Made by a program: the position numbers and the translations under genes. Below the pieces are notes generated by a model, which ran no database searches, was not told the origin of the DNA, and saw only the letters and a program-made list of their open reading frames with translations. Shown in pieces: positions 190 to 11,974 of a stretch of 36,147 bases of DNA (the first letter of the stretch is position 1; each line of letters opens with the position of its first letter). The DNA is from a virus. Its lineage: Duplodnaviria; Heunggongvirae; Uroviricota; Caudoviricetes. The stretch lies in the IMG/VR virus record IMGVR_UViG_2623620505_000004, positions 1 through 36,147 of that record; one strand, given 5' to 3'.

Positions 190-585
190 TCATTCGTTCC
201 CCTCTTTTTCCTTATTTCGTTGAACGCCAATTGCGACACACGTACTAAGCAAATCTTTACATTTCTCTACGTCTTCAGACTTACGCAATTTGATACTTTT
301 TACAGACTGCGGGCTACTGTCCGTAGCACGATACATCGTTATTTCAATATCATTTCGGTTTAAGAGTCCCATAATGGCTTTTGCAACCTCCACACCCTTC
401 TTCGCGAAATCAAAGAACAGAGCAAGTTTATATGGATTTTCGACGGAAAAAACTTCAATTTTGCTAAAACCAACATCGTGTAGAGAAAAATATTGCTCAA
501 CCTCATCTCGAAGTTCTGGATCGCATACAATATCTATTCTCCAGTACTGACCTAAATGCAAATCGCTATTAACTGTTTTTTCCAC
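190..585 (-). CDS. Hypothetical protein, AT-rich cargo ORF between integrase and left end
   Basis: ORF track 190-606 has a TTG first codon; a GTG at 585-583 sits 5 nt after a perfect AAGGAGG. No ATG near the 5' end. No recognisable motif. AT-rich codon usage unlike the phage backbone. Confidence 0.5.
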   Translation of the reverse strand: MEKTVNSDLHLGQYWRIDIVCDPELRDEVEQYFSLHDVGFSKIEVFSVENPYKLALFFDFAKKGVEVAKAIMGLLNRNDIEITMYRATDSSPQSVKSIKLRKSEDVEKCKDLLSTCVAIGVQRNKEKEGNE

Positions 586-595
586 AACATCCTCC

Positions 596-1570
596 TTACC
601 CAGCAATAGGATTAAATCTCACCGCATCCTGCAAGTAATCCGGCGCAAGATGGGCATAAATCATCGTTGTCTGAATCTTTGCGTGCCCCAGAATTTTCTG
701 GAGCGTCAGAATATTGCCGCCGTTCATCATGAAATGACTGGCGAAGGTGTGGCGCAGCGCATGAACAGCCTGGCCGTCAGGAACATCAGGTGCGACCGTT
801 TTGATGACATCGCGAACCAATGGATAATCCAGCGTCGGAAACACCAGTTTCCCGCCCCGTTTTTTGATCTTTTCAAACAGGCTTTCAGAAATAGGAACGG
901 TACGGTTTTTGCTGTTCTTCGTTTTTGAAAAAGTGATTCGACAATGAAGAACACGGCGCTGCTCCAGTGCCGCTACCTCGCCCCATCGCGCCCCGGTCGA
1001 CAGAAGGATTTCGACGGCCAGCCGTTCATCGGGATTTTCAGCCAGTGCATCCAGCAACTGAACACATTCAGACTTACTCAGATATCCCATTTCACGCTCG
1101 TTAACCTTCATTCCTTTAAGGCCTTGAACGGGGTTATCGTTAAGAAAATGGCCGGATGAGATGAGTGCGGTAAACATCGCGCTTAACGCCCCAATCTCTC
1201 GATTTATGGTGCTGGGCTGTATCCCCTGCTCTATCCTGGACACACGTAGCTCGGTGAGCATCGTTGTATTAAGTTTATGCACGCACGGGTCATCCATTGC
1301 CTCACTCAAGCGCAGCAATTTAAGGCGCGTGTTATGCCCTGACTTCATTAGCTGGCCGTGGTATTTCCACCACAAGTCAATAAGCACTGACAGCGGACGG
1401 CGATCAATGGAGTTTCCTTTCCACTCATTGTTATGCTGTTGCGCCAGCACCCACCGCTCATATAAAACTGCATCCGATTTCGTTTTAAATTTTTTGCGAA
1501 TGCGTTTGCCTTTACGCCCCTCAGGACGCATGTCAAGAAGATACCCTCCCGGAATTGATTTTATGCTCAT
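596..1570 (-). CDS. int: Tyrosine integrase (P2 Int-like)
   Basis: Translation from ATG 1570-1568 begins MSIKSIPGGYLLDMRPEGRKGKRIRKKF and ends with the catalytic region HALRHTFASHF...ILGHAKIQTTMIYAHL (R-H-R-Y tyrosine recombinase box). The upstream part of the ORF-track frame (596-1720) is not used. Confidence 0.92.
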   Translation of the reverse strand: MSIKSIPGGYLLDMRPEGRKGKRIRKKFKTKSDAVLYERWVLAQQHNNEWKGNSIDRRPLSVLIDLWWKYHGQLMKSGHNTRLKLLRLSEAMDDPCVHKLNTTMLTELRVSRIEQGIQPSTINREIGALSAMFTALISSGHFLNDNPVQGLKGMKVNEREMGYLSKSECVQLLDALAENPDERLAVEILLSTGARWGEVAALEQRRVLHCRITFSKTKNSKNRTVPISESLFEKIKKRGGKLVFPTLDYPLVRDVIKTVAPDVPDGQAVHALRHTFASHFMMNGGNILTLQKILGHAKIQTTMIYAHLAPDYLQDAVRFNPIAG

Positions 1571-1619
1571 TCGTGAAGCCCCAGCGTTACAAGACCACCA
1601 TGCCCCCAGCGTTCCATGA

Positions 1620-1931
1620 TTAGCCGGGCTGTGTGCCAGTCTTGCGGGATTTTTGAGAAGACGATGTGTTTTCTGGCCCATCAGGGGAGAGAGAAGGACT
1701 GATCTGCCCAGCAGCCTCATTTGTTTCGTTACTCATCAACCACGTAGTGTATTTTTTAAATTCCGGGTGCATTGTGATTTTCAGTAAAACCTCCGTTCCC
1801 ACACCTCGAATACCAGTCTCGTATTGCTTAACCGTACCAACCGCAATACCTATTGAATCCGCGAACTTTGCCTGACTAAGCCCCTCAGATTCTCGAATTG
1901 CTTTTAGCTTCTTTGATATCTCTATTGACAT
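1620..1931 (-). CDS. C: Immunity repressor C (P2 C-like, HTH)
   Basis: ATG at 1931-1929 gives MSIEISKKLKAIRESEGLSQAKFADSIGIAVGTVKQYETG (HTH), then ...EFKKYTTWLMSN...GQISP, resembling the P2 C C-terminus as remembered. Located immediately upstream of int, divergent from cox. Confidence 0.8.
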   Translation of the reverse strand: MSIEISKKLKAIRESEGLSQAKFADSIGIAVGTVKQYETGIRGVGTEVLLKITMHPEFKKYTTWLMSNETNEAAGQISPSLSPDGPENTSSSQKSRKTGTQPG

Positions 1932-1954
1932 GGTGTGCACCTGAATACTATATT
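1925..1954 (+). promoter_or_regulatory. Candidate early promoter Pe (TTGACA-N18-TATATT) in the C/cox switch region
   Basis: TTGACA at 1925-1930 and TATATT at 1949-1954, reading toward cox. A direct repeat GGTTATCA occurs at 1955-1962 and 2015-2022 (60 bp apart), candidate C operator half-sites. Confidence 0.4.
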
Positions 1955-2026
1955 GGTTATCAGTTGAGTACCACTTGACGCTACAAAGAGCCACAAATAG
2001 CACCAGATTGAATAGGTTATCACACC

Positions 2027-2305
2027 ATGGCAAAAGTCCTTAACACATACGAACAAGCGGATTTTGAGCGTTTGGCGGCGTTCTACCCATACCGTAATGA
2101 ACATGGGCTACCGGTACTTGAAGAAAGCCTAGAGGATTATGCGAAACGCACAAATCAAAGCATTCTCGCTGTAAGAAGGCAGGCTGATAGATCGGTAATT
2201 CCCGTTACTCAAGAAGGAAGAAACACAAAACGCAAAGTAAATCTCTTCGCAATTTTCCTGAAAACCATCAGAAACGCAGAGAAATACGTGCAGATGACAA
2301 AATAA
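2027..2305 (+). CDS. cox: Cox-like excisionase / switch regulator
   Basis: 92-aa ORF first on the rightward early transcript, divergent from C. Segment ILAVRRQADRSVIPV resembles the P2 Cox HTH region as remembered; rest diverged. Confidence 0.65.
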   Translation: MAKVLNTYEQADFERLAAFYPYRNEHGLPVLEESLEDYAKRTNQSILAVRRQADRSVIPVTQEGRNTKRKVNLFAIFLKTIRNAEKYVQMTK

Positions 2306-2319
2306 CGAGGTGTCATTTT

Positions 2320-2658
2320 ATGCTGAAGCAACGCCGTAATTTTTGTACCGGAACAGAACGCCACGCTAACCGTTTCACTACCAGTGCATCACGCAGCAAC
2401 ATCCGCTACAGCCTGAGTGATACACACGCAACGCCGGATGGCTACCCAGTAAAACAAATCGGCGAGCACGCCTGGCTGATTGAGAAAGCTGGAATCGTGA
2501 TCCACAAATGCCCACGCAATCCGTTTACCGGAAACCGCATTTTTGCACTGAGCTGTGGCGACAATCAGTTCGGGCAGGATTTCACATTATACGAAGCACT
2601 TCGCACGGTTGATCGTCTGCTTCGCGGGCAAAGTTTTATTAAACAGGCTGATTTATAA
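2320..2658 (+). CDS. Hypothetical early protein
   Basis: ATG at 2320 with upstream ACGAGG; 112 aa; in the cox-A early operon. No motif recognised. Confidence 0.55.
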   Translation: MLKQRRNFCTGTERHANRFTTSASRSNIRYSLSDTHATPDGYPVKQIGEHAWLIEKAGIVIHKCPRNPFTGNRIFALSCGDNQFGQDFTLYEALRTVDRLLRGQSFIKQADL

Positions 2659-2668
2659 CAGGTGCTTT

Positions 2669-2956
2669 ATGACCAAAGACCATGCACAAGGTGTATTTAT
2701 CCGTTTTATTGATTTTCGCGGTGAACTGTTATTACGTGCATCCGCTATTGACGGAGTGACTCCGGCGGGTAAAAACGGAGCCGACGAAGCCACTTACGTT
2801 TATCTGAACGGCACGCGACTGCTTGTGGAACTTCCGTACCAGACCGTACGAGAAATCATCAGCGAAGCTGAAAAGGCACGCCAGGTTAATGGCGATGAAC
2901 CCTATATCGAAATTATTTGTATGGATTCAGAGGCTGAAATACAGAAAGCAGATTAA
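2669..2956 (+). CDS. Hypothetical early protein
   Basis: ATG at 2669 (MTKDHAQGVF...); 95 aa. The ORF-track frame starts further upstream (2555) and overlaps the preceding gene. Confidence 0.55.
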   Translation: MTKDHAQGVFIRFIDFRGELLLRASAIDGVTPAGKNGADEATYVYLNGTRLLVELPYQTVREIISEAEKARQVNGDEPYIEIICMDSEAEIQKAD

Positions 2957-2967
2957 AGGGCGTTGTG

Positions 2968-3210
2968 ATGGGCAAAGAATATAAAACTCTCATTAACAAA
3001 GCACTTGAGCGTTTTTATTTTCGCTTAAGTGCATCAGGCGCTCATGCTGAACGTGCGGCCCGTGACTCATTGACCAGAGCAATCCGAAGTCTGTATGACG
3101 TGGCTTTTTACGCTGATGATCTGGATGCACTTAACGAACTTTCCGAGCTGATCTGTGCCGCAGAATGCGGGGAACATATTGAACCGTATAAGCTGGGAAA
3201 TATCGCATGA
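2968..3210 (+). CDS. Hypothetical early protein
   Basis: ATG at 2968 preceded by AAAGGG; the ORF-track start at 2965 is GTG. 80 aa. Confidence 0.55.
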   Translation: MGKEYKTLINKALERFYFRLSASGAHAERAARDSLTRAIRSLYDVAFYADDLDALNELSELICAAECGEHIEPYKLGNIA

Positions 3211-3320
3211 GTATATTTATTTCATGGCTTGTTCTGATTATTTCGGTGGTCTGCGCCATTGGGATTATGCGAATTATTAATTCAGTAAAAAAGATTGAAC
3301 GCTTTTTCACTGAAGAATAA
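3207..3320 (+). CDS. Small hydrophobic peptide (37 aa, single predicted TM helix)
   Basis: ATG at 3207 overlaps the upstream TGA (ATGA coupling). Translation MSIFISWLVLIISVVCAIGIMRIINSVKKIERFFTEE. Below the 60-aa cutoff of the ORF track. Confidence 0.4.
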   Translation: MSIFISWLVLIISVVCAIGIMRIINSVKKIERFFTEE

Positions 3321-3406
3321 CCGCGCAAATAAGACCCCAGGTTAAATAAGAAAATGTGAAAACAATCCGCATTCGCGGAGGTATTCGCACACGCCAAGGA
3401 GGCGTA

Positions 3407-3610
3407 ATGGCAATTAAGCATTTTCCTGTCGTTCGTTTCACCTCCAGAGGACGTGAATACGAAGTTGACGAACGCCTGATTACCACAATCGACAAACACC
3501 GTTCAGAAAAGGATGCACATCACATCTATCTCACTGACGGCACTTACTTCTGCGCCACCAACGTGGTGCAGGTGAATCTTATCAGACAGGTACAGGAGTC
3601 ACGCAGATGA
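3407..3610 (+). CDS. Hypothetical early protein
   Basis: ATG at 3407 preceded by perfect AAGGAGG (MAIKHFPVVRF...); the ORF-track start at 3356 is GTG. 67 aa. Confidence 0.5.
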   Translation: MAIKHFPVVRFTSRGREYEVDERLITTIDKHRSEKDAHHIYLTDGTYFCATNVVQVNLIRQVQESRR

Positions 3611-3852
3611 CCATTCTGGACTACATCGCTGCCAATCCGGGTTGTAGCAGTGGAGAAATCGCCGCAGCACTGAATACACCAACCACAACCATTAATGCGG
3701 AGCTACGCCGTCTCTGGCGCAGCGATTTAGTCACAAGAAAAGAGCGCAAAACAGGCGGTCGCTTTTCTTATCAGGTAAACCTGATGCCGTTTGGGTGTAG
3801 CAACCCACTAACCCAGATGTTCAACCAGCTACTGAGGGAAATCAGAGCATGA
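3607..3852 (+). CDS. Putative winged-helix DNA-binding protein
   Basis: ATG at 3607 with CAGGAG upstream; 81 aa; segment SSGEIAAALNTPTTTINAELRRLWRSDLV looks like a MarR/winged-helix recognition region. Family not assignable by eye. Confidence 0.5.
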   Translation: MTILDYIAANPGCSSGEIAAALNTPTTTINAELRRLWRSDLVTRKERKTGGRFSYQVNLMPFGCSNPLTQMFNQLLREIRA

Positions 3853-3993
3853 GCACCTCCAACTGCCGGAAACCACGTCGGGCTTCAGCAGCTCATCCGG
3901 CAGCAAAACAAACTCCATTAATTCCTGTCCCGGGCCTTTCCTGCACCTTGCGGCGGGAGGCCTTCGCACATCTGTAACAAGAGGATTGCCGCA

Positions 3994-4359
3994 ATGATTC
4001 TCGCCAACGACTTTCTTGAATACCTGCTCAACACAGAGCGTGATCTTGCCGCTCGCGTGCGTGATCGTTATGACATGTACCTGAAATCCCTGCCTGTACC
4101 GCAGCTCGCTGACGGAAAGATTGTTATTGATGGTCGCTACATGATTGACAGCCACGAGGGAAATTACAGGCTTTACCGCATTGAAGGTGGCACCCCGTCC
4201 GTTATTGGCATTTACCAGCGCCCATCCTCTGCAATCGTCGATGTGATTGCCGACAGCATCCGCATCACACATCGCCATGCCGACACAGAAGACACCGTGC
4301 TGGAAATTCAGCGGCTGGCTACAGTCTGCCGCGACACCCTGAATGGCATGACGAAGTAA
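3994..4359 (+). CDS. Hypothetical early protein
   Basis: ATG at 3994 with GAGGA upstream; 121 aa; directly precedes gpA. Confidence 0.55.
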   Translation: MILANDFLEYLLNTERDLAARVRDRYDMYLKSLPVPQLADGKIVIDGRYMIDSHEGNYRLYRIEGGTPSVIGIYQRPSSAIVDVIADSIRITHRHADTEDTVLEIQRLATVCRDTLNGMTK

Positions 4360-4365
4360 ATCACT

Positions 4366-7188
4366 ATGACGGCAGAGTACATCAGGGACTGGCAACAACC
4401 GCGCCACGCAGTGGGGCGTGAAGGAACGGGGATCCCCGCTCCTGAATCCGCGCTTTCCTCCTGGCTGGATGCCTACCGGGTAGAGAACGAGCGCCGCCAG
4501 GAAATGGCTGATGCGGCCTTCTCCGCCACGCCACTGGGCAACCTGATTAATAAAAGCCTGGACGCACAGGAAAAACAGGACAAAACCATCACACTGGCAG
4601 GAGACGCCAGAAAACAGGCACGCGGCGCGGTGGATGAAGCCATGGCCTCGCTGCGCCTGCTGCCGTCCTATCTGCGCGATCCGCTTATTCGCCACCTCTC
4701 CTTCCTGCGCAAAAAACAGGAAGCCGATCGCCGGAAAGGCAAAAAGAGCTGGCAGGCGGAACGCTATGCACGCGGAACCCTGCGCAAAATATTCGAACGT
4801 CTGGATCGCACTGACGGACACTGGCTGACACCGGGTTATCGCTCCCTTGCCGGACGCGAACGCCTGGACGATTTGCTTTACCTGCCGCAGCTCAACAAAC
4901 ACCAGATACAGACGCTGGCCACCATGACGGCGGCGATGTTCAGCAGCACCTTCGAAAAACTCTGCGATGGCTTTGGCGCGACCGATGGCGAACTGACCAT
5001 GGATGTAACGCTGAAGGCGTATCAGATGCTGGCCCGCATGGCGTTACACCTGCACATCATGCCTCCACATTATGACGCACTGACAACAGATAAAGACCGG
5101 AGGAACGAACCGGACACGGAGCTGCTGCCGGGCGCAATCCTTCGCCTGACCTGTGCGGAATGGTGGAAACGCAAACTGTGGCTGTTACGTTGCGAGTGGA
5201 GAGAAGAACAACTCCGCGCCGCCTGTCTGGTTTCCAGAAAAACATCACCCTATCTGAGCCAGGACGCGTTAAGCGAGTTTCGCGCACAGCGCGAGAAAAC
5301 ACGCGATTTCCTGAAAAGTTTCATGCTGGAAAACGAAGACGGGTTCACGATTGATCTCGAGACAGTGTATTACGCGGGAGTAAGTAACCCGGTTCACCGT
5401 AAGGCAGAAATGATGGCCACCATGAAGGGGCTGGAACTTCTGGCCGAAGCCCGTGGCGACAAAGCGGTGTTTCTGACTGTCACCTGCCCGTCAAAATACC
5501 ACGCCACAACAGAGAACGGTCATCCGAATCCCAAATGGAACGGGGCCACCATGCGCGACTCCAGCGATTACCTGGTTAACACGTTTTTTGCAGCGGTCCG
5601 CAAGAAACTGAACCGCGACGGCCTGCGCTGGTATGGCATCCGCACGGTGGAGCCTCACCATGACGGCACCGTGCACTGGCATATGATGGTCTTTGCTCAT
5701 CCGGAAGAAATCGACACCATTGTGTCCCACACCCGCGATATTGCCATTCAGGAAGATCGTCACGAGCTGGGTGATGATATTACCCCACGCTTTAAGGCGG
5801 AGTACGTCGACGGCTCAAAAGGCACGCCAACCAGCTACATCGCCACCTACATCGGAAAGAACCTGGACAGCCGCGCCGTGGATGGCATCGACCCGAAAAC
5901 GGGCAAGCCACGCGTTGACCACGAAACAGGTAAATCAATGGCCGAGAGCGTGGAGCGCGCCATCGGCTGGGCGCGCCTTCACCGGGTCCGCCAGTTCCAG
6001 TTCTTTGGCATCCCCTCCCGTCAGGTGTGGCGTGAACTCCGCCGCCTTGCCAGCCAGATGGCACGCAACCCGGAAGGCCCGCAACGGCTGAAGGATGACG
6101 CAATGGATGCGGTACTCGCTGCCGCTGATGCCGGATGTTTTGCCACCTACATTGAAAAACAGGGTGGCGTACTTGTTCCGCGCAAGGACTACCTGATTCG
6201 CACAGCCTACGACCTCGCAGATGAGCTGAACGATTACGGCGAACAGAGTGTACAGATTTACGGGATCTGGTCGCCATTCATCGGGGAATCCTCCCGTGTG
6301 TGCACGCATCCGGATAACTGGAAGCTGGTAAGACGTAAACCGGAAGCGGAAGACAGCGCCCGCGAAAATGGTTTTGACCTTCAGGGCGGCCCTGCCGCCC
6401 CTTGGACTCGTGGCAATAACTGTCCCCGTGTACAGGAAACGGACAACAACGGGACAGAACAGCCGGAAGAACGGCCAGCACCGTGGCCGCAGCTCCCTGA
6501 CGGCGTTGAAGTGAACGAATGGATGCGCTCACTGAAACGGCACGAACGCCGGGCGCTGATGCGTTCGCTGCGTGACAAACAGGCAAAAAACAGCAGTGAT
6601 GAAATGCAGAGCTGGACACAGAGCCGCAAACAGCAGCGGCCTTTGCCTGATAACCACGAATTACTCGCTAAAGAATGGCGGGAGTCTGCTGAATCTCTCG
6701 GCCTGCATATCGGTGAACAACAGATGCAGCACCTGTTACGGGGCGGCAGTCTGTACGTTGACGGCAGCATCATTGCACCGCAGGGATTTGAAATTGTACG
6801 CAAACCGGATACCCGCCCGGACAGCCGAATCACGCAGCTCTGGCAACGCCTGAGCCGTAATCACGGCGTAAGCAGCACGGAGATCCGCCATAACCCGGTC
6901 GCCAGTTATCTGGAACAGCTGGGGGCATCAGACAATGAAGCCGCAGCACGCCTGGCATCCACACTTCAGCAGGACCAGAACACCATGAACCCCCCCGTTA
7001 CCGTGCTTTCTGACATGCTGCGCGCCATCCGTGACGCAGAGCACGCACAAAGAATCAATGAAACCACTGAACGCGTCCGCCGCAAAGCAGACCTGCTGCG
7101 GGGTGGACTAACCAGTGAAAACAAAAAACAGACAAAAACGGGATTCACAAATCCCGTAAATGAGCAAAAAACGCGCCGCGATATATGA
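4366..7188 (+). CDS. A: Replication initiation protein gpA (rolling-circle HUH endonuclease), with long C-terminal extension
   Basis: Motifs TVEPHHDGTVHWHMMVF (HUH metal site) and SYIATYIGKNLD (active-site tyrosines) match the P2 A signature. 940 aa against about 760 for P2 A as remembered; the extra C-terminal region is polar and low-complexity. Confidence 0.9.
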   Translation: MTAEYIRDWQQPRHAVGREGTGIPAPESALSSWLDAYRVENERRQEMADAAFSATPLGNLINKSLDAQEKQDKTITLAGDARKQARGAVDEAMASLRLLPSYLRDPLIRHLSFLRKKQEADRRKGKKSWQAERYARGTLRKIFERLDRTDGHWLTPGYRSLAGRERLDDLLYLPQLNKHQIQTLATMTAAMFSSTFEKLCDGFGATDGELTMDVTLKAYQMLARMALHLHIMPPHYDALTTDKDRRNEPDTELLPGAILRLTCAEWWKRKLWLLRCEWREEQLRAACLVSRKTSPYLSQDALSEFRAQREKTRDFLKSFMLENEDGFTIDLETVYYAGVSNPVHRKAEMMATMKGLELLAEARGDKAVFLTVTCPSKYHATTENGHPNPKWNGATMRDSSDYLVNTFFAAVRKKLNRDGLRWYGIRTVEPHHDGTVHWHMMVFAHPEEIDTIVSHTRDIAIQEDRHELGDDITPRFKAEYVDGSKGTPTSYIATYIGKNLDSRAVDGIDPKTGKPRVDHETGKSMAESVERAIGWARLHRVRQFQFFGIPSRQVWRELRRLASQMARNPEGPQRLKDDAMDAVLAAADAGCFATYIEKQGGVLVPRKDYLIRTAYDLADELNDYGEQSVQIYGIWSPFIGESSRVCTHPDNWKLVRRKPEAEDSARENGFDLQGGPAAPWTRGNNCPRVQETDNNGTEQPEERPAPWPQLPDGVEVNEWMRSLKRHERRALMRSLRDKQAKNSSDEMQSWTQSRKQQRPLPDNHELLAKEWRESAESLGLHIGEQQMQHLLRGGSLYVDGSIIAPQGFEIVRKPDTRPDSRITQLWQRLSRNHGVSSTEIRHNPVASYLEQLGASDNEAAARLASTLQQDQNTMNPPVTVLSDMLRAIRDAEHAQRINETTERVRRKADLLRGGLTSENKKQTKTGFTNPVNEQKTRRDI

Positions 7189-7233
7189 AGCGCGCACAAA
7201 ACAGGCAAAAGAGGGATTTAAAAATCCCGTAAA
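7139..7233 (+). repeat. Two direct copies of a palindromic 21-bp motif upstream of parM (candidate parC / ParR operator)
   Basis: CGGGATTCACAAATCCCGTAAA at 7139-7160 and GGGATTTAAAAATCCCGTAAA at 7213-7233, each an inverted repeat (GGGATTT...AAATCCC). The first lies in the last codons of gpA, the second just upstream of the parM start. Confidence 0.45.
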
Positions 7234-7264
7234 CGATTAATTAATCAACATAAGGAAAATCGAC

Positions 7265-8224
7265 ATGAAAATTTGTATCGACGACGGCTCCACCAACATC
7301 AAGCTGGCATGGACTGAGAACGGCGAACGCCGCAACGCCATCAGCCCGAACAGCTTCAAGTCGGAATGGTCTGCGCCGTTCGGTGGCTCGCAGCCTGCGA
7401 ACTACATGCTTGATGGCGTGCGCTATGGTTTTGATCCGGTCAGCGATCGCTTTGTCCAGACGACCGACACGCAATACCAGTACAGCGATGTGAATGTAAT
7501 CGCCATTCACCACGCGCTGGTCAAATCAGGCATCACACCACAGGAGGTGGATGTGGTTGTCACCCTGCCACTGAGCGAGTATTTCGACACAAACGCACAG
7601 CCGGACATGGCCAACATCAACCGCAAAAAAGCGAACGTTATGCGCCCGGTGGAGTACCAGAACGGCGAAGCATTCACTATCCGTAACGTGCGGGTTATGC
7701 CTGAATCCATTCCGGCTGGCTTTAAGGCACTGGCTGACATGAGTCCGTTTGAATCCCTGCTGATTGTGGATTTGGGCGGAACCACGCTGGATGTGGCAAA
7801 GGTTCAGGGGCAACTGGCAGGTATCAGCCAGGTGTTTTGCGATCCACACGTAGGCGTTTCTCTGATGGCCGATGCCGTACTGTCGGTGATGGCCACTAAC
7901 GGTATGCGCACCAGTCACCACATCGCCAATACCATTATCGAACATCGCCATGATGAAGCCTGGCTGCGCCAGCACATCCACAATGACGCGCATTACGACA
8001 GCCTGATGGCGGTTATTCGTGAAAAGGAAGAAACGCTGAAACAACGAGTGATCCGCGCGCTGGCGGGTTTTTCGGGTTACGGGCGGGTGATGGTTGTCGG
8101 TGGAGGGGCGGAGATTGTGGCACCCGCTATCCGCGAAGCCTGCGGAGTTAATGCGACTTTCATCGCGGACGGGGTGCCACAGTTTGCTCTGGTCAATGGT
8201 TTGTACGCAATGGACAAGGAGTAA
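7265..8224 (+). CDS. parM: ParM/StbA-like actin-type segregation ATPase
   Basis: N-terminus MKICIDDGSTNIKLAW and internal LLIVDLGGTTLDV, VMVVGGGAE align with plasmid R1 ParM (MLVFIDDGSTNIKLQW..., IIDLGGTTLDI, VIGGGAE) as remembered, along most of the length. Confidence 0.85.
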   Translation: MKICIDDGSTNIKLAWTENGERRNAISPNSFKSEWSAPFGGSQPANYMLDGVRYGFDPVSDRFVQTTDTQYQYSDVNVIAIHHALVKSGITPQEVDVVVTLPLSEYFDTNAQPDMANINRKKANVMRPVEYQNGEAFTIRNVRVMPESIPAGFKALADMSPFESLLIVDLGGTTLDVAKVQGQLAGISQVFCDPHVGVSLMADAVLSVMATNGMRTSHHIANTIIEHRHDEAWLRQHIHNDAHYDSLMAVIREKEETLKQRVIRALAGFSGYGRVMVVGGGAEIVAPAIREACGVNATFIADGVPQFALVNGLYAMDKE

Positions 8225-8228
8225 ACCA

Positions 8229-8540
8229 ATGACGACACCAACCAGACGGATAAGTCTCTATCTGAAGCCCGCCGCCGTCAAGAACGAAGGCGAAGCATGC
8301 GCCTGGCTGGACAGCCTTACACCAGAAGCCCGCAAAAGCGGCCAACGCGTGGCTTTTCTGGCCGGGCTGGCACTTCTGAAAATGAATCCGGCAGAGGCTT
8401 ACCGACTGGCTGCATGGGCTGACGATGAGGCGTTATCAGTGACACAAACCAGGGCAGAACGCCACATGTTACAGACAGCCCCCACCGCACAGATAACCAG
8501 TCAGATGGCCGGAAATATCCGGGCGTTATTTCCCGATTAG
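8229..8540 (+). CDS. parR: ParR/StbB-like centromere-binding adaptor (putative)
   Basis: ATG at 8229 after AAGGAG; 103 aa immediately downstream of parM. Segment LDSLTPEARKSGQRVAFLAGLAL resembles R1 ParR (LDSIPQGERSRLNRAALTAGLAL) as remembered. Confidence 0.6.
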   Translation: MTTPTRRISLYLKPAAVKNEGEACAWLDSLTPEARKSGQRVAFLAGLALLKMNPAEAYRLAAWADDEALSVTQTRAERHMLQTAPTAQITSQMAGNIRALFPD

Positions 8541-8610
8541 AACTTTGCACGGGAGGTTTCCAGTTCTGAAAACAATCAACAAATAAGGAGTCGAACGTCA
8601 AAGATATAAG

Positions 8611-8637
8611 GCCGCCTAGCTGGCGGTCTTGTGTCTT
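8611..8637 (+). terminator. Putative intrinsic terminator after parR
   Basis: GCCGCC-TAGCT-GGCGGT hairpin followed by CTTGTGTCTT. Confidence 0.4.
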
Positions 8638-8670
8638 AAAATATGTTTATCTTAATGAGGACTATTATTT

Positions 8671-9189
8671 TTATAAAAAATAATCATCATGAGAGGAAAC
8701 ATGAAAATTATAATCTCTCAATTGGGGGATAATCCCTCTACTCCAAAGCAACGTTTTATTTAGTCCAAGTCCATCTAATTTCATCATCCTGTTGCGCAGC
8801 GCAATGAATTCATTCTTGAAGTTATCTGCAGAGATGATCTTTGGGCAAAAACAAGAATACAACTTTCTATTACTTACACCACAAGCATTGGCAAGCTCAT
8901 CCTCAAAATTGCTTGTTTGTTGAAATAGGTGGATTGTGTGTTTTTTCGCCTTTAATAGATTGAGATTATTCTTAAATCTATCAAGATTCTCAATCCTATC
9001 CGTATCAAAAACCACTATGATTTCGCTATTTTCGGTTAATGCTGGCATGTATTTATTTATATTAACATTCCATAAATTAGCAATTACTATTTTCTTAATA
9101 GGATAGCCTAGCAATGTTTTGAAATCCTGAAACAATGCTTTTTCCGTATCTCCCTCAACAAGAATAATAGCAAATTTCTTAACTGCCAT
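8671..9189 (-). CDS. Small TOPRIM-clan protein (OLD/DUF4435/RloB-like), putative nuclease partner of the upstream ATPase
   Basis: ATG at 9189 (GAGGA upstream) 2 nt after the ATPase stop; the ORF-track start at 9195 is TTG. 172 aa. AILVEGDTEK (TOPRIM glutamate) and IVVFDTDR (DxD) in the expected order. Strongly AT-rich. Confidence 0.6.
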   Translation of the reverse strand: MAVKKFAIILVEGDTEKALFQDFKTLLGYPIKKIVIANLWNVNINKYMPALTENSEIIVVFDTDRIENLDRFKNNLNLLKAKKHTIHLFQQTSNFEDELANACGVSNRKLYSCFCPKIISADNFKNEFIALRNRMMKLDGLGLNKTLLWSRGIIPQLRDYNFHVSSHDDYFL

Positions 9190-9191
9190 AA

Positions 9192-10391
9192 TCAATCCTC
9201 AAATAGCATCTCTTCGATTAATGAAACGTCAGGTATTGTTGCAAAACAGTCATTTTTTACTTTATTTAAAAGATTGCGATCATTCTTTTTATGATGTGTG
9301 GTAGCTTCAACAAAAGTGGTTACACCATCTACTTTTTTAGTAAAAGTATATGAATGCGTAGGCAGATCTAAGCTCAAGATATCATAATTATGTGTGGTGT
9401 ATATAAATTGACCATATCTGCAAAGCTTAGATATAATCAGCGTGACCATCATTTTTTCTAATTCAGTATGAGTGAAGGCCATTTTCTCATCCAAAAAGTA
9501 CACCCCACTGCAAGGGAAATTGAACTCTCGCTCTTCTATTTTATCTTCAAGCACTCCTGACAGGAGATGGGATATTTTTACTGCCTCATAAGTACCACGA
9601 GACAGTCTATCTTTATTTGTTATATCACCTTCCATATCAATAATAACTCTATCTCCATTATTGAAGACTACTGAATAACCCTGCAAATCCTCCTTTCCCT
9701 CATCATCTTTAAGAGTGAGTCCTGAGACAGATTTAACAGTATTGTCAAAGGTTTTTAATATGCTATTAAGCACATTCTTCTTAATTCGTGATATTTTATC
9801 CGTGTTCTCTTGGTTTTCAGATAGAATGAAATGCCAACCAAGAACAAAGTCCAAATCCTCTAAATATTGGGAAAATTCTTTTGAGTTAGCGTTTTCGGTT
9901 GAAAAAAATCTATTTTGACCATTTAATTCAAACTTTTGCGCATCCCACACAGCATCCAGTCTTTTGGTCGTCTTTGCGCATGATTCCGAGCTTCTTAAAT
10001 CAACAGATGCCATTGCAATTTTTTCTACAACAACAGACTCATCCATAGCCCTAAGCCAGACACCTGCCCTAAACAAACATTTTAAATGACTCTGGAAAAA
10101 GTCAACCTCTATATATGCAGGTTTTCTTTTGTCAGTAATTTTTAACGGTTCTGGATTGAAAACACCACTACTGAGAAAACGCAACACAGAAAGCATCACG
10201 CGACCAAGAGATGTTTTACCAGATGCATTAGCACCAGAAACGATGCAAACCTTTTTGAAGTAGAACTTTTCAAATCCATCAATGTACTCACCTTCCAGTG
10301 AGCTGTTGATCGGGGGTCTGGAGAAGCTTAAGTCAAGGATGCTATTTTCAAAGCAAAACAGATTATCGATTCTGATTTTTGTAAAAGCCAT
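9192..10391 (-). CDS. ABC/AAA-type ATPase (AAA_15/AAA_21-like), putative defense ATPase
   Basis: ATG at 10391 with GGTGG RBS. Walker A GANASGKTS, signature-like LSRGTYEAV, Walker B VYFLDE, H-loop-like TTHN. 399 aa, AT-rich, tightly coupled to the downstream TOPRIM gene. Confidence 0.75.
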   Translation of the reverse strand: MAFTKIRIDNLFCFENSILDLSFSRPPINSSLEGEYIDGFEKFYFKKVCIVSGANASGKTSLGRVMLSVLRFLSSGVFNPEPLKITDKRKPAYIEVDFFQSHLKCLFRAGVWLRAMDESVVVEKIAMASVDLRSSESCAKTTKRLDAVWDAQKFELNGQNRFFSTENANSKEFSQYLEDLDFVLGWHFILSENQENTDKISRIKKNVLNSILKTFDNTVKSVSGLTLKDDEGKEDLQGYSVVFNNGDRVIIDMEGDITNKDRLSRGTYEAVKISHLLSGVLEDKIEEREFNFPCSGVYFLDEKMAFTHTELEKMMVTLIISKLCRYGQFIYTTHNYDILSLDLPTHSYTFTKKVDGVTTFVEATTHHKKNDRNLLNKVKNDCFATIPDVSLIEEMLFED

Positions 10392-10476
10392 TTTGTTCCA
10401 CCTTTTGGAAGTAAATATTGCTACCTGTTGAGTTTACATGTAATGAGCTGGTAAGCAATACAGGGATTCGATTTAG

Positions 10477-10504
10477 CGCACAATAGTGCACAAATTTGCA
10501 CAAT
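10477..10504 (-). promoter_or_regulatory. Three tandem TTGTGC(A/G)C repeats upstream of the ATPase gene (candidate operator)
   Basis: Minus strand reads TTGTGCAAAT TTGTGCACTA TTGTGCGC, just upstream of a possible TTGCTT-N16-TAAACT sigma70 promoter and the ATPase RBS. Confidence 0.3.
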
Positions 10505-10573
10505 TTTTTTGAACGAATTTTTGCCCTTCTGGCCCGCGTGGCGGCTGGATCCGTCAGGGATCCGTGCGTGCAC

Positions 10574-10599
10574 AAAAAAACGCGCTTTTTCTGCGCGCA
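10574..10599 (-). terminator. Putative intrinsic terminator on minus strand (insulates the island from Q-P read-through)
   Basis: Minus strand GCGCGC-AGAAAAA-GCGCG followed by a run of seven T (plus-strand A-run 10574-10580). Confidence 0.4.
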
Positions 10600-10873
10600 G
10601 GTGACGGGGGAACAGCCCGCGTTTCAGGGGGTAAATAGCGTTCCCTTAACGATGTCGCAGCGACACGACAGAATGGCCGTATTTCTCACGCTGAGCGTGA
10701 AAAATACGTGAGGGATTCTGGTTTGATGGGGTGAAAGGTAAGGCCGTCAAAATCGCACTGAGGCGGCGAGAACATGCAGTCAGCGCAGTGGGATTGCGTA
10801 AGAATCTGACCGTCGATGATGGCAATAAGCAGGAAAGCGTCGTGAAATTATCTGACTGATACAGGAGCTGGAG

Positions 10874-10900
10874 AGTCGGGGCATAAATTTTTTATGCCCC
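10874..10900. terminator. Strong palindromic hairpin just downstream of portal gene Q
   Basis: CCGGGGCATAAA-TTTT-TTATGCCCCGG, a near-perfect inverted repeat; no clean U-tract on either side, so function (terminator or processing site) is uncertain. Confidence 0.35.
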
Positions 10901-10927
10901 GGCGAAGCAGCAGACAAGCGAAGCGCG

Positions 10928-11974
10928 TCAGGATGTGGGCTGGGTATCTAACAGTGCGTAAGGGTTAAAGCGGATCACCTCTTCGCCAAGCCAGTCATTG
11001 ATGTGCTTCATGGCCTCCATGACGGGCATCAGCTCGTTAATTGCGTAAACCCGCGCGGCCTTCTCCACATCACCAAACGCACTTTTTTCGCCCGGCATCG
11101 CCCCCATCAGTTGCGGCGGAACGCGGTGCGCAGCCAGCACATCATCACGGGATGCCGCCTTAACATTCATGAACTCATCCTTTGCGGTGATCTGCTGGAA
11201 CGGCAAAATTTGCACCCCCTCTTTGCCCCCGTTGGGCGCATGAATGAGCACGTTTTTAAACGCACCACCACCACGTGCCCCCTGTAGCGTTTCTTTCAGG
11301 GAGTCCATGCTTTCGCGGTTTACCTGCGCTGCACCGATGTAGATGATGCACCCGGCGTGGGATCCGTTGTCGTAGTACAGTTTTCTGAACATGTCCGCCG
11401 AATGAGAAAGGCTGGCCGAGAGTAATGCGCCAAGATATTCCGGCATGCCGTAGATTTCCTGGTTAATATCCGGATTCATCAGGTGGCACACTTTGCCAGG
11501 ACGAAACTGAAACGCATCCTTGCCATCCTGCACATACCACCATGATTCAAGATCGCTTCCGCGTCGCATGTATTTCGCCAGGGCGTGCCGTAATTTAAGC
11601 GGTTCGCCGAGCATATTGCTCCGAAGCTCAAGGAATGCGTTACCGAACACAAACCAGTCCAGCGCCAGCGCCGAGAAATCCTGCCGGGAAAGCAGCGGGT
11701 GCGGAATATAGCAGCCGAGCAATACATTGCGCTTAAAGTAAAGCGCAGACTGATGCCAGGACGTTTGCCGGGCAGCTCTTGCCAGACCGTACCAGTCCAC
11801 CGGGGTTTCATACCACCGCCCGTTATCAGCACAGTACATATTGTCCAGCAGGTCATGCCCGGTCAGGCGATAAGGACCATCAAATGTGAATGCACTGAGC
11901 GATGATTCTTTCCTGAGCGCATCAGCGAGATCAATGCGTGAACTCATGCGCACTTTTTTATTTTTTCTGCTCAT
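10928..11974 (-). CDS. Q: Portal protein gpQ
   Basis: 348 aa, position and size as P2 Q; start ATG overlaps the terminase stop by 1 nt (TGATG). First gene product of the leftward Q-P late operon's downstream end. Confidence 0.88.
   Translation of the reverse strand: MSRKNKKVRMSSRIDLADALRKESSLSAFTFDGPYRLTGHDLLDNMYCADNGRWYETPVDWYGLARAARQTSWHQSALYFKRNVLLGCYIPHPLLSRQDFSALALDWFVFGNAFLELRSNMLGEPLKLRHALAKYMRRGSDLESWWYVQDGKDAFQFRPGKVCHLMNPDINQEIYGMPEYLGALLSASLSHSADMFRKLYYDNGSHAGCIIYIGAAQVNRESMDSLKETLQGARGGGAFKNVLIHAPNGGKEGVQILPFQQITAKDEFMNVKAASRDDVLAAHRVPPQLMGAMPGEKSAFGDVEKAARVYAINELMPVMEAMKHINDWLGEEVIRFNPYALLDTQPTS

Follow-up and report, generated by a model that had tools for sequence, protein, structure and literature searches.

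What is the function of a pair of adjacent minus-strand genes in the cos-proximal cargo site of an Escherichia coli prophage? The pair lies in a 36,147-nucleotide stretch of viral DNA (IMG/VR virus record IMGVR_UViG_2623620505_000004, positions 1 to 36,147), which was analyzed in full and is called the window here. The window is a P88-like prophage (Xuanwuvirus, Peduoviridae; P2 family) and is 100% identical to its copy in E. coli 1303 (NZ_CP009166), which lies beside btuC in that genome. The two genes encode an ATP-binding cassette (ABC) ATPase and a small, stand-alone TOPRIM protein. An initial annotation, made from the letters of the sequence, proposed them as an anti-phage system, and an ABC ATPase and TOPRIM pair in a P2 defense hotspot is a reasonable candidate for one. 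From the combined analyses, we consider it moderately likely that the cassette is an autonomous two-gene anti-phage system, carried as a prophage “moron” and belonging to the group of split ABC ATPase and TOPRIM systems (AbiL, RloAB, MADS3-4, and PARIS).

The ATPase and its TOPRIM partner

Two minus-strand open reading frames (ORFs) of 399 and 172 residues are present where the initial annotation had placed them (Table 1), and the calls of the Prokaryotic Genome Annotation Pipeline (PGAP) in E. coli 1303 are identical. The order and spacing of the stop codon, start codon, and Shine-Dalgarno site at their junction agree with the translational coupling that had been proposed, the sequence there being consistent with such coupling. 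The start of the second gene is placed at an ATG by PGAP and by the initial annotation; the ORF-listing program extends it to a TTG two codons upstream.

By its motifs and its fold, the first gene product is an ABC ATPase of the Rad50/SMC/OLD type (Pfam: AAA_15/AAA_21). The Walker A, Walker B, and signature-like motifs recognized initially are all real and are accompanied by an H-loop (Walker A, G53-K59-T60; signature, S264-G266-T267; Walker B, D301-E302; H-loop, T332-T333-H334-N335). As GANASGKT, LSRGT, YFLDE, and TTHN, these motifs are kept throughout 42 homologs, down to 34% identity, and the positions that are invariant or near-invariant among them are G53, N55, G58, K59, T60, S264, G266, T267, D301, E302, T332, T333, H334, and N335. 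The protein passes the Pfam AAA_15 cut-off narrowly (34.1 bits; cut-off 32.1), and its AlphaFold (AF2) model is confident, with a predicted local distance difference test score (pLDDT) of 89.5 and a predicted template modeling score (pTM) of 0.89. A Foldseek search with this model retrieves Septu PtuA (2e-11), Rad50, the SMC head, retron-associated PtuA, and Thermus scotoductus OLD (9e-9), all of these named matches at just 10-16% identity; sequence and profile searches found no relative of the ATPase among PDB chains. The gene (EC1303_RS09630 in NZ_CP009166) is named “hypothetical protein” in RefSeq despite passing AAA_15, its close relatives bearing the name “AAA family ATPase.”

The second gene product shows the features of the TOPRIM superfamily, namely, a glutamate after strand beta-1, a DxD motif after beta-3, and a four-stranded alpha/beta core. 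The TOPRIM glutamate (VEGDTE) and the DxD (DTD) that had been read from its sequence are genuine and belong to a set of residues (E12, G13, D62, D64, E98, and K125) that is invariant in 76 diverse members of the family, in which E16, N38, N75, Q91, N94, E96, L138, and W149 are at least 90% conserved. Residues E12, E16, D62, D64, E96, and E98, together with K125, would fit a putative two-metal site of the OLD type. The structure prediction called for by the initial annotation bore out one half of what was hoped for from it: the model is confident (pLDDT 92.7) and has a TOPRIM-type topology, with a strand-helix-strand-strand-helix-strand core (residues 1-91) followed by a helical bundle (residues 95-172), but it found no informative fold match in the PDB, where Foldseek returned nothing below E 0.03 and generic alpha/beta folds only. 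Fold searches alone do not discriminate for a TOPRIM assignment. Sequence and profile searches likewise gave no meaningful match to the partner among PDB chains. In hhalign comparisons of the family profiles with P2 Old, the motifs are colinear but the similarity is weak (E 0.0035 and 0.00055); for the partner family, VEGxTE falls on VEGKTE and DTD on DCD (E 0.0035, hhalign probability 9%).

The partner had been described as minimal, much smaller than the TOPRIM proteins of related systems, a description that its own family does not sustain. An exhaustive profile search identified 747 cluster representatives (clusters made at 50% identity) at E up to 1e-3, 507 of them at up to 1e-10. The best 150 matches are nearly all 160-190 residues long and aligned end to end (overall range, 94-195 residues), so about 170 residues is the native size of the family and not the result of truncation. 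The isolated catalytic region of OLD is of comparable size (BpOLD construct, 6nk8 chain, 204 residues). The same length distribution rules out the 172-residue protein as a truncated RloB or AriB.

RecF and RecR, too, combine an ABC ATPase and a small TOPRIM protein. The resemblance of the present gene layout to theirs, together with an ATPase fold closest to Rad50, the SMC head, and PtuA, would favor a reading of the two proteins as a DNA-repair or recombination pair of this kind, or as another housekeeping nucleoprotein function imported by the phage. The complete nuclease-type acidic site in the partner speaks against such a role, as does a distribution that is mobile, AT-rich, and sporadic, and we give this reading hardly any weight.

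The ATPase and the TOPRIM protein are obligately paired. We sampled eight other loci with ATPase homologs, 32-47% identical to the window ATPase, and in 8/8 of them (identity across these loci, 25-47%) a partner homolog of 159-187 residues begins -8 to +10 nucleotides downstream of the ATPase. All nine partners, that of the window included, keep V11, E12, G13, E16, D62, D64, Q91, E96, E98, F124, and K125. No fused ATPase-TOPRIM protein occurs among the ATPase matches listed (366-447 residues) or the best 150 partner matches. This constant pairing argues for the anti-phage reading, and so do the contexts in which the pairs are found (Table 1), which are those of defense or mobile cargo: P2 hotspots, a P4-like satellite, a prophage, a restriction-modification (R-M) operon, and a Cap4 neighbor.

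Some of these loci have features of their own. In the Glaesserella parasuis locus (418-7237), the ATPase and a 163-residue partner stand between hsdR and hsdM, the classic “R-linked ORF” arrangement, which suggests that the module can also serve as an R-M add-on. The Proteus element (1644-10949) combines the pair with a P4-alpha-like primase (Toprim_2/Toprim_3, 886 residues), two integrases, and an Ogr/Delta gene, and is probably a P4-like satellite; if so, the cassette family would occupy both P2-type and P4-type hotspots. The Oligella island (991-7706) holds, side by side, three paralogous modules of an AAA_15-type ATPase and a small protein, of 427 and 145 residues, of a 190-residue ATPase fragment and 166 residues beside an insertion sequence (IS) element, and of 395 and 173 residues.

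Relation to characterized systems

Does the pair belong to a system that already has a name? The initial annotation looked to OLD, PARIS, Gabija, and AbiL/RloAB for relatives, which is the right neighborhood as judged from Pfam, PADLOC, and fold matches, and it called the family unassigned, which is no longer tenable. Rousset et al. 2022 had already entered this very pair in their curated Table S5B, as system #90 (“AAA_15/AAA_21/SMC_N” with “RloB,” 37 occurrences); the ATPase entered there differs from that of the window by one residue, and Table S5A of the same work lists WP_000279222 and its ATPase between StbA and Plasmid_stab_B. Split ABC ATPase and TOPRIM systems are, moreover, a recognized group (PARIS, AbiL, and MADS3-4), and RloB and DUF4276 are recognized TOPRIM members with effector roles. 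General family databases add little: neither protein is near any family cut-off in NCBIfam, and the full-length families matched in PHROGs are labeled “unknown function.”

The best PADLOC model for the ATPase is AbiLi (1.1e-27; profile positions 50-290 of 326, about 74%). All of its relatives match this model (42/42), with mad3 of MADS matched by 39/42 and AriA by 23/42, and the position of AbiLi as the nearest defense model is one of the reasons for the anti-phage reading. AbiL of Lactococcus lactis has, as here, two genes, an ATPase followed by a TOPRIM protein, and published work reads AbiLii as a TOPRIM of the RloB/OLD type. The resemblance to AbiL, compared here through the PADLOC models, does not extend in the same measure to the second gene: the window partner matches AbiLii weakly (E 6e-5, 21.7 bits), and the best stretch covers profile positions 29-53 of 170 only. 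Among the 76 partner relatives, PADLOC models are matched by 23 for AbiLii (best 1.1e-5) and by 1 for mad4. A tblastn search of 72,556 plasmids with the ATPase matched no Lactococcus plasmid; the one record with a homolog comes from Acinetobacter.

The RloA/RloB pair, known from type I R-M loci of Campylobacter, likewise has a small TOPRIM-clan protein (about 200 residues) encoded after an AAA_15/21 ATPase, and Rousset et al. 2022 labeled the window’s partner “RloB” by HHpred-type annotation. The partner, however, stays below the Pfam cut-off for RloB (PF13707; 17.6 bits vs. 31.5), and the embedding in a type I R-M locus is absent, with no R-M genes in the window hotspot. The Pfam comparison proposed initially thus had a divided outcome, in that AAA_15 and OLD-like_TOPRIM (24.2 bits; cut-off 23.2) pass narrowly, whereas RloB falls short and DUF4435 gives nothing. 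Neither DUF4435 (PF14491) nor DUF4276 (PF14103) matches the partner at E up to 1. The 76 partner relatives include seven with OLD-like_TOPRIM and three with RloB, all three weak (best E 0.0017), and none with DUF4435 at E up to 0.01.

PARIS (AriA and AriB) shares with the pair the split between ABC ATPase and TOPRIM and the location in P2/P4 hotspots, its AriA is weakly matched by the window ATPase (5e-8), and it provides the best mechanistic template, a tRNase that is sequestered and then released. It differs in its effector, AriB being about 35 kDa and the window partner about 20 kDa and lacking DUF4435; no AriA or AriB chain is among the best 50 fold-search matches of the ATPase or the best 60 of the partner. 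In P2 Old, OLD classes 1-2, and GajA, the two domains are fused in one polypeptide; the window system is stably split, and its sequence similarity to them is marginal. Its two ORFs set it apart from OLD classes 1-2, as does the lack of a nearby helicase (class 2 has a UvrD-like partner). The likeness to the NetFlax pairs AAA(D29):TOPRIM_OLD(D44/D60), from Clostridium and Streptococcus, is one of two-protein logic; two such AAA and TOPRIM_OLD/RloB-like pairs have been validated, with the TOPRIM protein as toxin and the AAA protein as antitoxin (Ernits et al. 2023, NetFlax; PMC10440598).

In MADS, an eight-gene, methylation-linked system, mad3 and mad4 form a pair of an ATPase and a small TOPRIM protein of the DUF4276 type, as here, and both are required for defense. 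In MADS, however, the pair is part of a multigene locus that also comprises mad6-8 and a methyltransferase, whereas the island consists of two genes and lacks all the rest of the MADS set. The matches of the window proteins to mad3 (2.7e-11) and mad4 (2.3e-4), genes that MADS needs within its larger system, nonetheless bear on a further reading, in which the pair is an R-M accessory of the RloAB or MADS3-4 type that has become an orphan in the window prophage and has little or no autonomous activity. The Glaesserella pair and the definition of the RloB family from type I R-M loci point in this direction as well. We regard this reading as improbable, because the window hotspot has no R-M genes, R-M genes adjoin the pair in just one of the eight other sampled loci, and the island is 99.6-100% identical with intact ORFs in 6 genomes and has 37 occurrences in Rousset et al. 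2022. For the anti-phage reading, by contrast, the literature offers several precedents, in the AAA/TOPRIM toxin-antitoxin pairs, in mad3/mad4 of MADS, and in AriB and P2 OLD, which are tRNases gated by ABC modules.

We file the pair as an “AbiL/RloAB-like split ABC ATPase + TOPRIM” system and not as a confirmed member of one named system, because the first gene matches AbiLi, the match of the second to AbiLii is weak, and the distinguishing features of RloB, PARIS, fused OLD/GajA, and MADS are missing. The clade of the partner is large and sharply conserved, and it is not captured by RloB, DUF4276, or DUF4435 or by the solved structures of OLD, GajA, and AriB. It could tentatively be regarded as a distinct, unnamed clade of predicted stand-alone TOPRIM nucleases, marked by E-x3-E, DxD, Q-x2-N-x-E-x-E, and K, which would make up, with the dedicated ATPase of about 400 residues, an OLD-like split immunity class apart from the others, having a trigger and a substrate specific to it, autonomous in prophage hotspots or plugged into R-M operons; we think such a class possible but doubtful. 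Sources are inconsistent in how they name the partner’s relatives (hypothetical, DUF4276, RloB, or TOPRIM), and one relative that is 60% identical is named “DUF4276 domain-containing” by NCBI.

The cargo site and a possible role in defense

According to the PGAP annotation, the gene order around the pair is a gpA-like replication endonuclease, parM, parR, the TOPRIM and ATPase genes, cos-proximal noncoding DNA, the portal gene (Q), and the terminase gene (P). The placement between parMR and the cos/Q region, at the site where P2 carries tin and old, was proposed initially and agrees with both gene order and orientation, P2 old and tin likewise lying on the minus strand, transcribed in the direction from cos to A. 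The island is also as sharply AT-rich as had been described, with a GC content of 0.29-0.40 over 8600-10400 and of 0.52-0.60 in both flanks. An alignment with P88 sets its right edge at 10477/10478, homology to P88 starting exactly at 10478.

A variable insert between gpA and gpQ, beside cos, is what defines the cos-proximal hotspot cargo of P2-like phages, and the window carries one. The site behaves as a hotspot, in that the flanks are matched in 1108 of 5426 complete E. coli genomes and the island in only 6, at 99.6-100% identity. These 6 strains are unrelated to each other, and the ORFs are intact in all of them. In P88 and PhiR44_2, parMR and the cos-proximal DNA are those of the window, but the site holds other cargo, on the plus strand. 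Rousset et al. 2022 defined the gpA-gpQ hotspot as a defense reservoir, and the documented nature of the site, the listing of the pair within it, and the position and orientation shared with P2 old and tin together support the anti-phage reading.

The immediate neighborhood of parM and parR raises the question of whether the pair is instead a prophage or plasmid addiction module that cooperates with parMR and stabilizes an episomal P88-like prophage. Rousset et al. 2022 noted a partition system in the hotspot of about one-quarter of P2-like phages and speculated that parMR-bearing phages may persist as plasmids, and AAA and TOPRIM pairs can act as toxin-antitoxin systems (PMC10440598). On the other hand, parMR accompanies other cargo in P88 and PhiR44_2, so that the partition module (7265-8540) and the ATPase/TOPRIM pair assort independently within the hotspot; no parMR accompanies the homologous pairs of the Klebsiella P2 hotspot, the P4-like satellite, the R-M operon, and chromosomal islands; and only 1 of 72,556 plasmids carries a homolog. 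Addiction in place of defense therefore appears unlikely to us, and toxin-antitoxin behavior and defense are not mutually exclusive.

If the pair acts in defense, as we favor, a coupled transcript would yield both proteins in a fixed ratio. The Rad50/SMC-type ABC ATPase might dimerize or oligomerize and serve as both sensor and antitoxin, keeping the small TOPRIM nuclease inactive. An infection cue, perhaps a protein of the phage or a nucleic acid of abnormal structure, would then, together with ATP binding or hydrolysis, free or activate the nuclease. Its predicted two-metal site would cut a nucleic acid, conceivably host tRNA (the target of AriB and P2 OLD) or else DNA (the target of GajA). 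Arrest of the infected cell or of the invading phage would protect the lysogen population and the resident prophage.

Several observations weigh against this reading. The cassette is rare: among 5426 complete E. coli genomes, 6 carry any homolog, as do 2 phage records. There is no convincing promoter, a scan of the minus strand ahead of the ATPase having given no sigma-70-like site of at least 9/12; the systems that Rousset et al. 2022 tabulated as evaluated by experiment do not include the pair; and the literature holds no established mechanism for AbiL. The rarity and the lack of a clear promoter would also be expected if the pair were a decaying or silent remnant without present function. 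Decay is very unlikely, in our estimation, given that both ORFs are intact with all family-invariant catalytic residues, that the sequence is near-identical in the 6 unrelated E. coli strains, and that neither the Shine-Dalgarno sites nor the coupling of the genes has been lost.

Should the anti-phage reading be correct, the pair would be a compact (1.7 kb) addition to the ABC ATPase and TOPRIM immunity group at the P2 old position and, as a representative native to E. coli, a handy model for asking whether the toxin is sequestered as in PARIS, whether tRNA or DNA is cut, and what acts as the trigger. The gain would be incremental, because the literature already has the architecture, the hotspot, and even this gene pair.

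Flanking elements and neighboring features

Is the expression of the island governed by elements of its own? It had been credited with a promoter-like region containing triple TTGTGC repeats and with a terminator that insulates it from Q-P read-through. The repeats are real, and so is a hairpin with a T-run at 10580-10598; both are base-for-base the same in P88, which lacks the island, and so belong to the phage backbone. The repeats were accordingly rejected as an island-specific regulatory region, and the terminator is not owned by the island, although it would limit Q-P read-through into any cargo of the hotspot. The leader that belongs to the island itself measures just 86 bp. A regulatory or promoter role of the backbone repeats for whatever cargo occupies the site could be envisaged. 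The GCACAA/TTGTGC units form overlapping palindromes (GTGCAC core), with a fourth copy at 10570-10575, and might be an array bound by a protein such as terminase, IHF, or a regulator, or else a promoter element of the cargo. Counted over the whole window, TTGTGC shows no enrichment (27 found vs. 32.6 expected).

Table 1. Features of the island and its surroundings in the window, and contexts of homologous pairs in other loci
Feature	Coordinates	Strand	Description
Gene 1, 399-residue Rad50/SMC-type ABC ATPase, WP_000885991	9192..10391	-	ORF and PGAP call (“hypothetical protein”)
Gene 2, 172-residue stand-alone TOPRIM protein, WP_000279222	8671..9189	-	TOPRIM core (1-91) and C-terminal helical bundle (95-172)
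Gene junction	9186..9206	-	ATPase stop TGA (9194-9192), 2 nucleotides, partner ATG (9189-9187); GAGGA Shine-Dalgarno within ATPase 3' end
AT-rich cargo island (hotspot insert)	8541..10477		parR stop to start of conserved backbone; from GC profile and megablast flank edges
Island-specific leader, 86 bp	10392..10477	-	GGTGGA Shine-Dalgarno; weak promoter candidates only, e.g., TTGCTT-16-TAAACT
Three TTGTGC repeats	10478..10503	-	At 10478, 10488, and 10498, in 10-bp phase; backbone at exact hotspot boundary; P88-identical
Intrinsic-terminator-like hairpin and T7 run	10580..10598	-	Backbone, downstream of portal/terminase operon; P88-identical
GC hairpin CCGCC-AGCTA-GGCGG	8612..8626	-	45 nucleotides past TOPRIM stop, between convergent parMR and island operons; candidate terminator, weak T-tract
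parM	7265-8224	+	PGAP; separate partition module, outside the system
parR-like	8229-8540	+	PGAP; separate partition module, outside the system
Pair in Klebsiella (L007, L008)			P2-like gpQ-gpA hotspot, without parMR
Pair in Proteus mirabilis (L011)			Element with P4-like primase and Ogr/Delta
Pair in E. coli (L003)			Prophage cargo near integrase
Pair in Acinetobacter phage Ab105-3phi (L013)			Prophage cargo near integrase
Pair in Glaesserella parasuis (L004)			Inside type I R-M operon, between hsdR and hsdM
Pair in Psychrobacter (L009)			Adjoining Cap4 nuclease
Pair in Oligella urethralis (L010)			Island with two other AAA_15 and small-protein pairs
Pair in Taylorella (L005)			Stand-alone

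Further inverted repeats lie between the island and the portal gene. A perfect 11-bp repeat with a 3-nucleotide loop (CGGGGCATAAA/TTTATGCCCCG, 10877-10901) stands just past the portal gene stop, is also present in PhiR44_2, and is likely a terminator of the Q-P operon or an element of the cos region. Another, of 15 nucleotides and 93% complementary (CGTATTTCTCACGCT/AGCGTGAAAAATACG, 10678-10708), lies in the cos-proximal segment common to P88 and PhiR44_2. The 19-nucleotide cos end of P2 was not found in the window, and P88-like phages therefore use a different cos. On the far side of parMR, the gpA-like replication endonuclease (4366-7188) has 940 residues, a sizeable extension relative to the 761 residues of P2 A (2286 bp, NC_001895).

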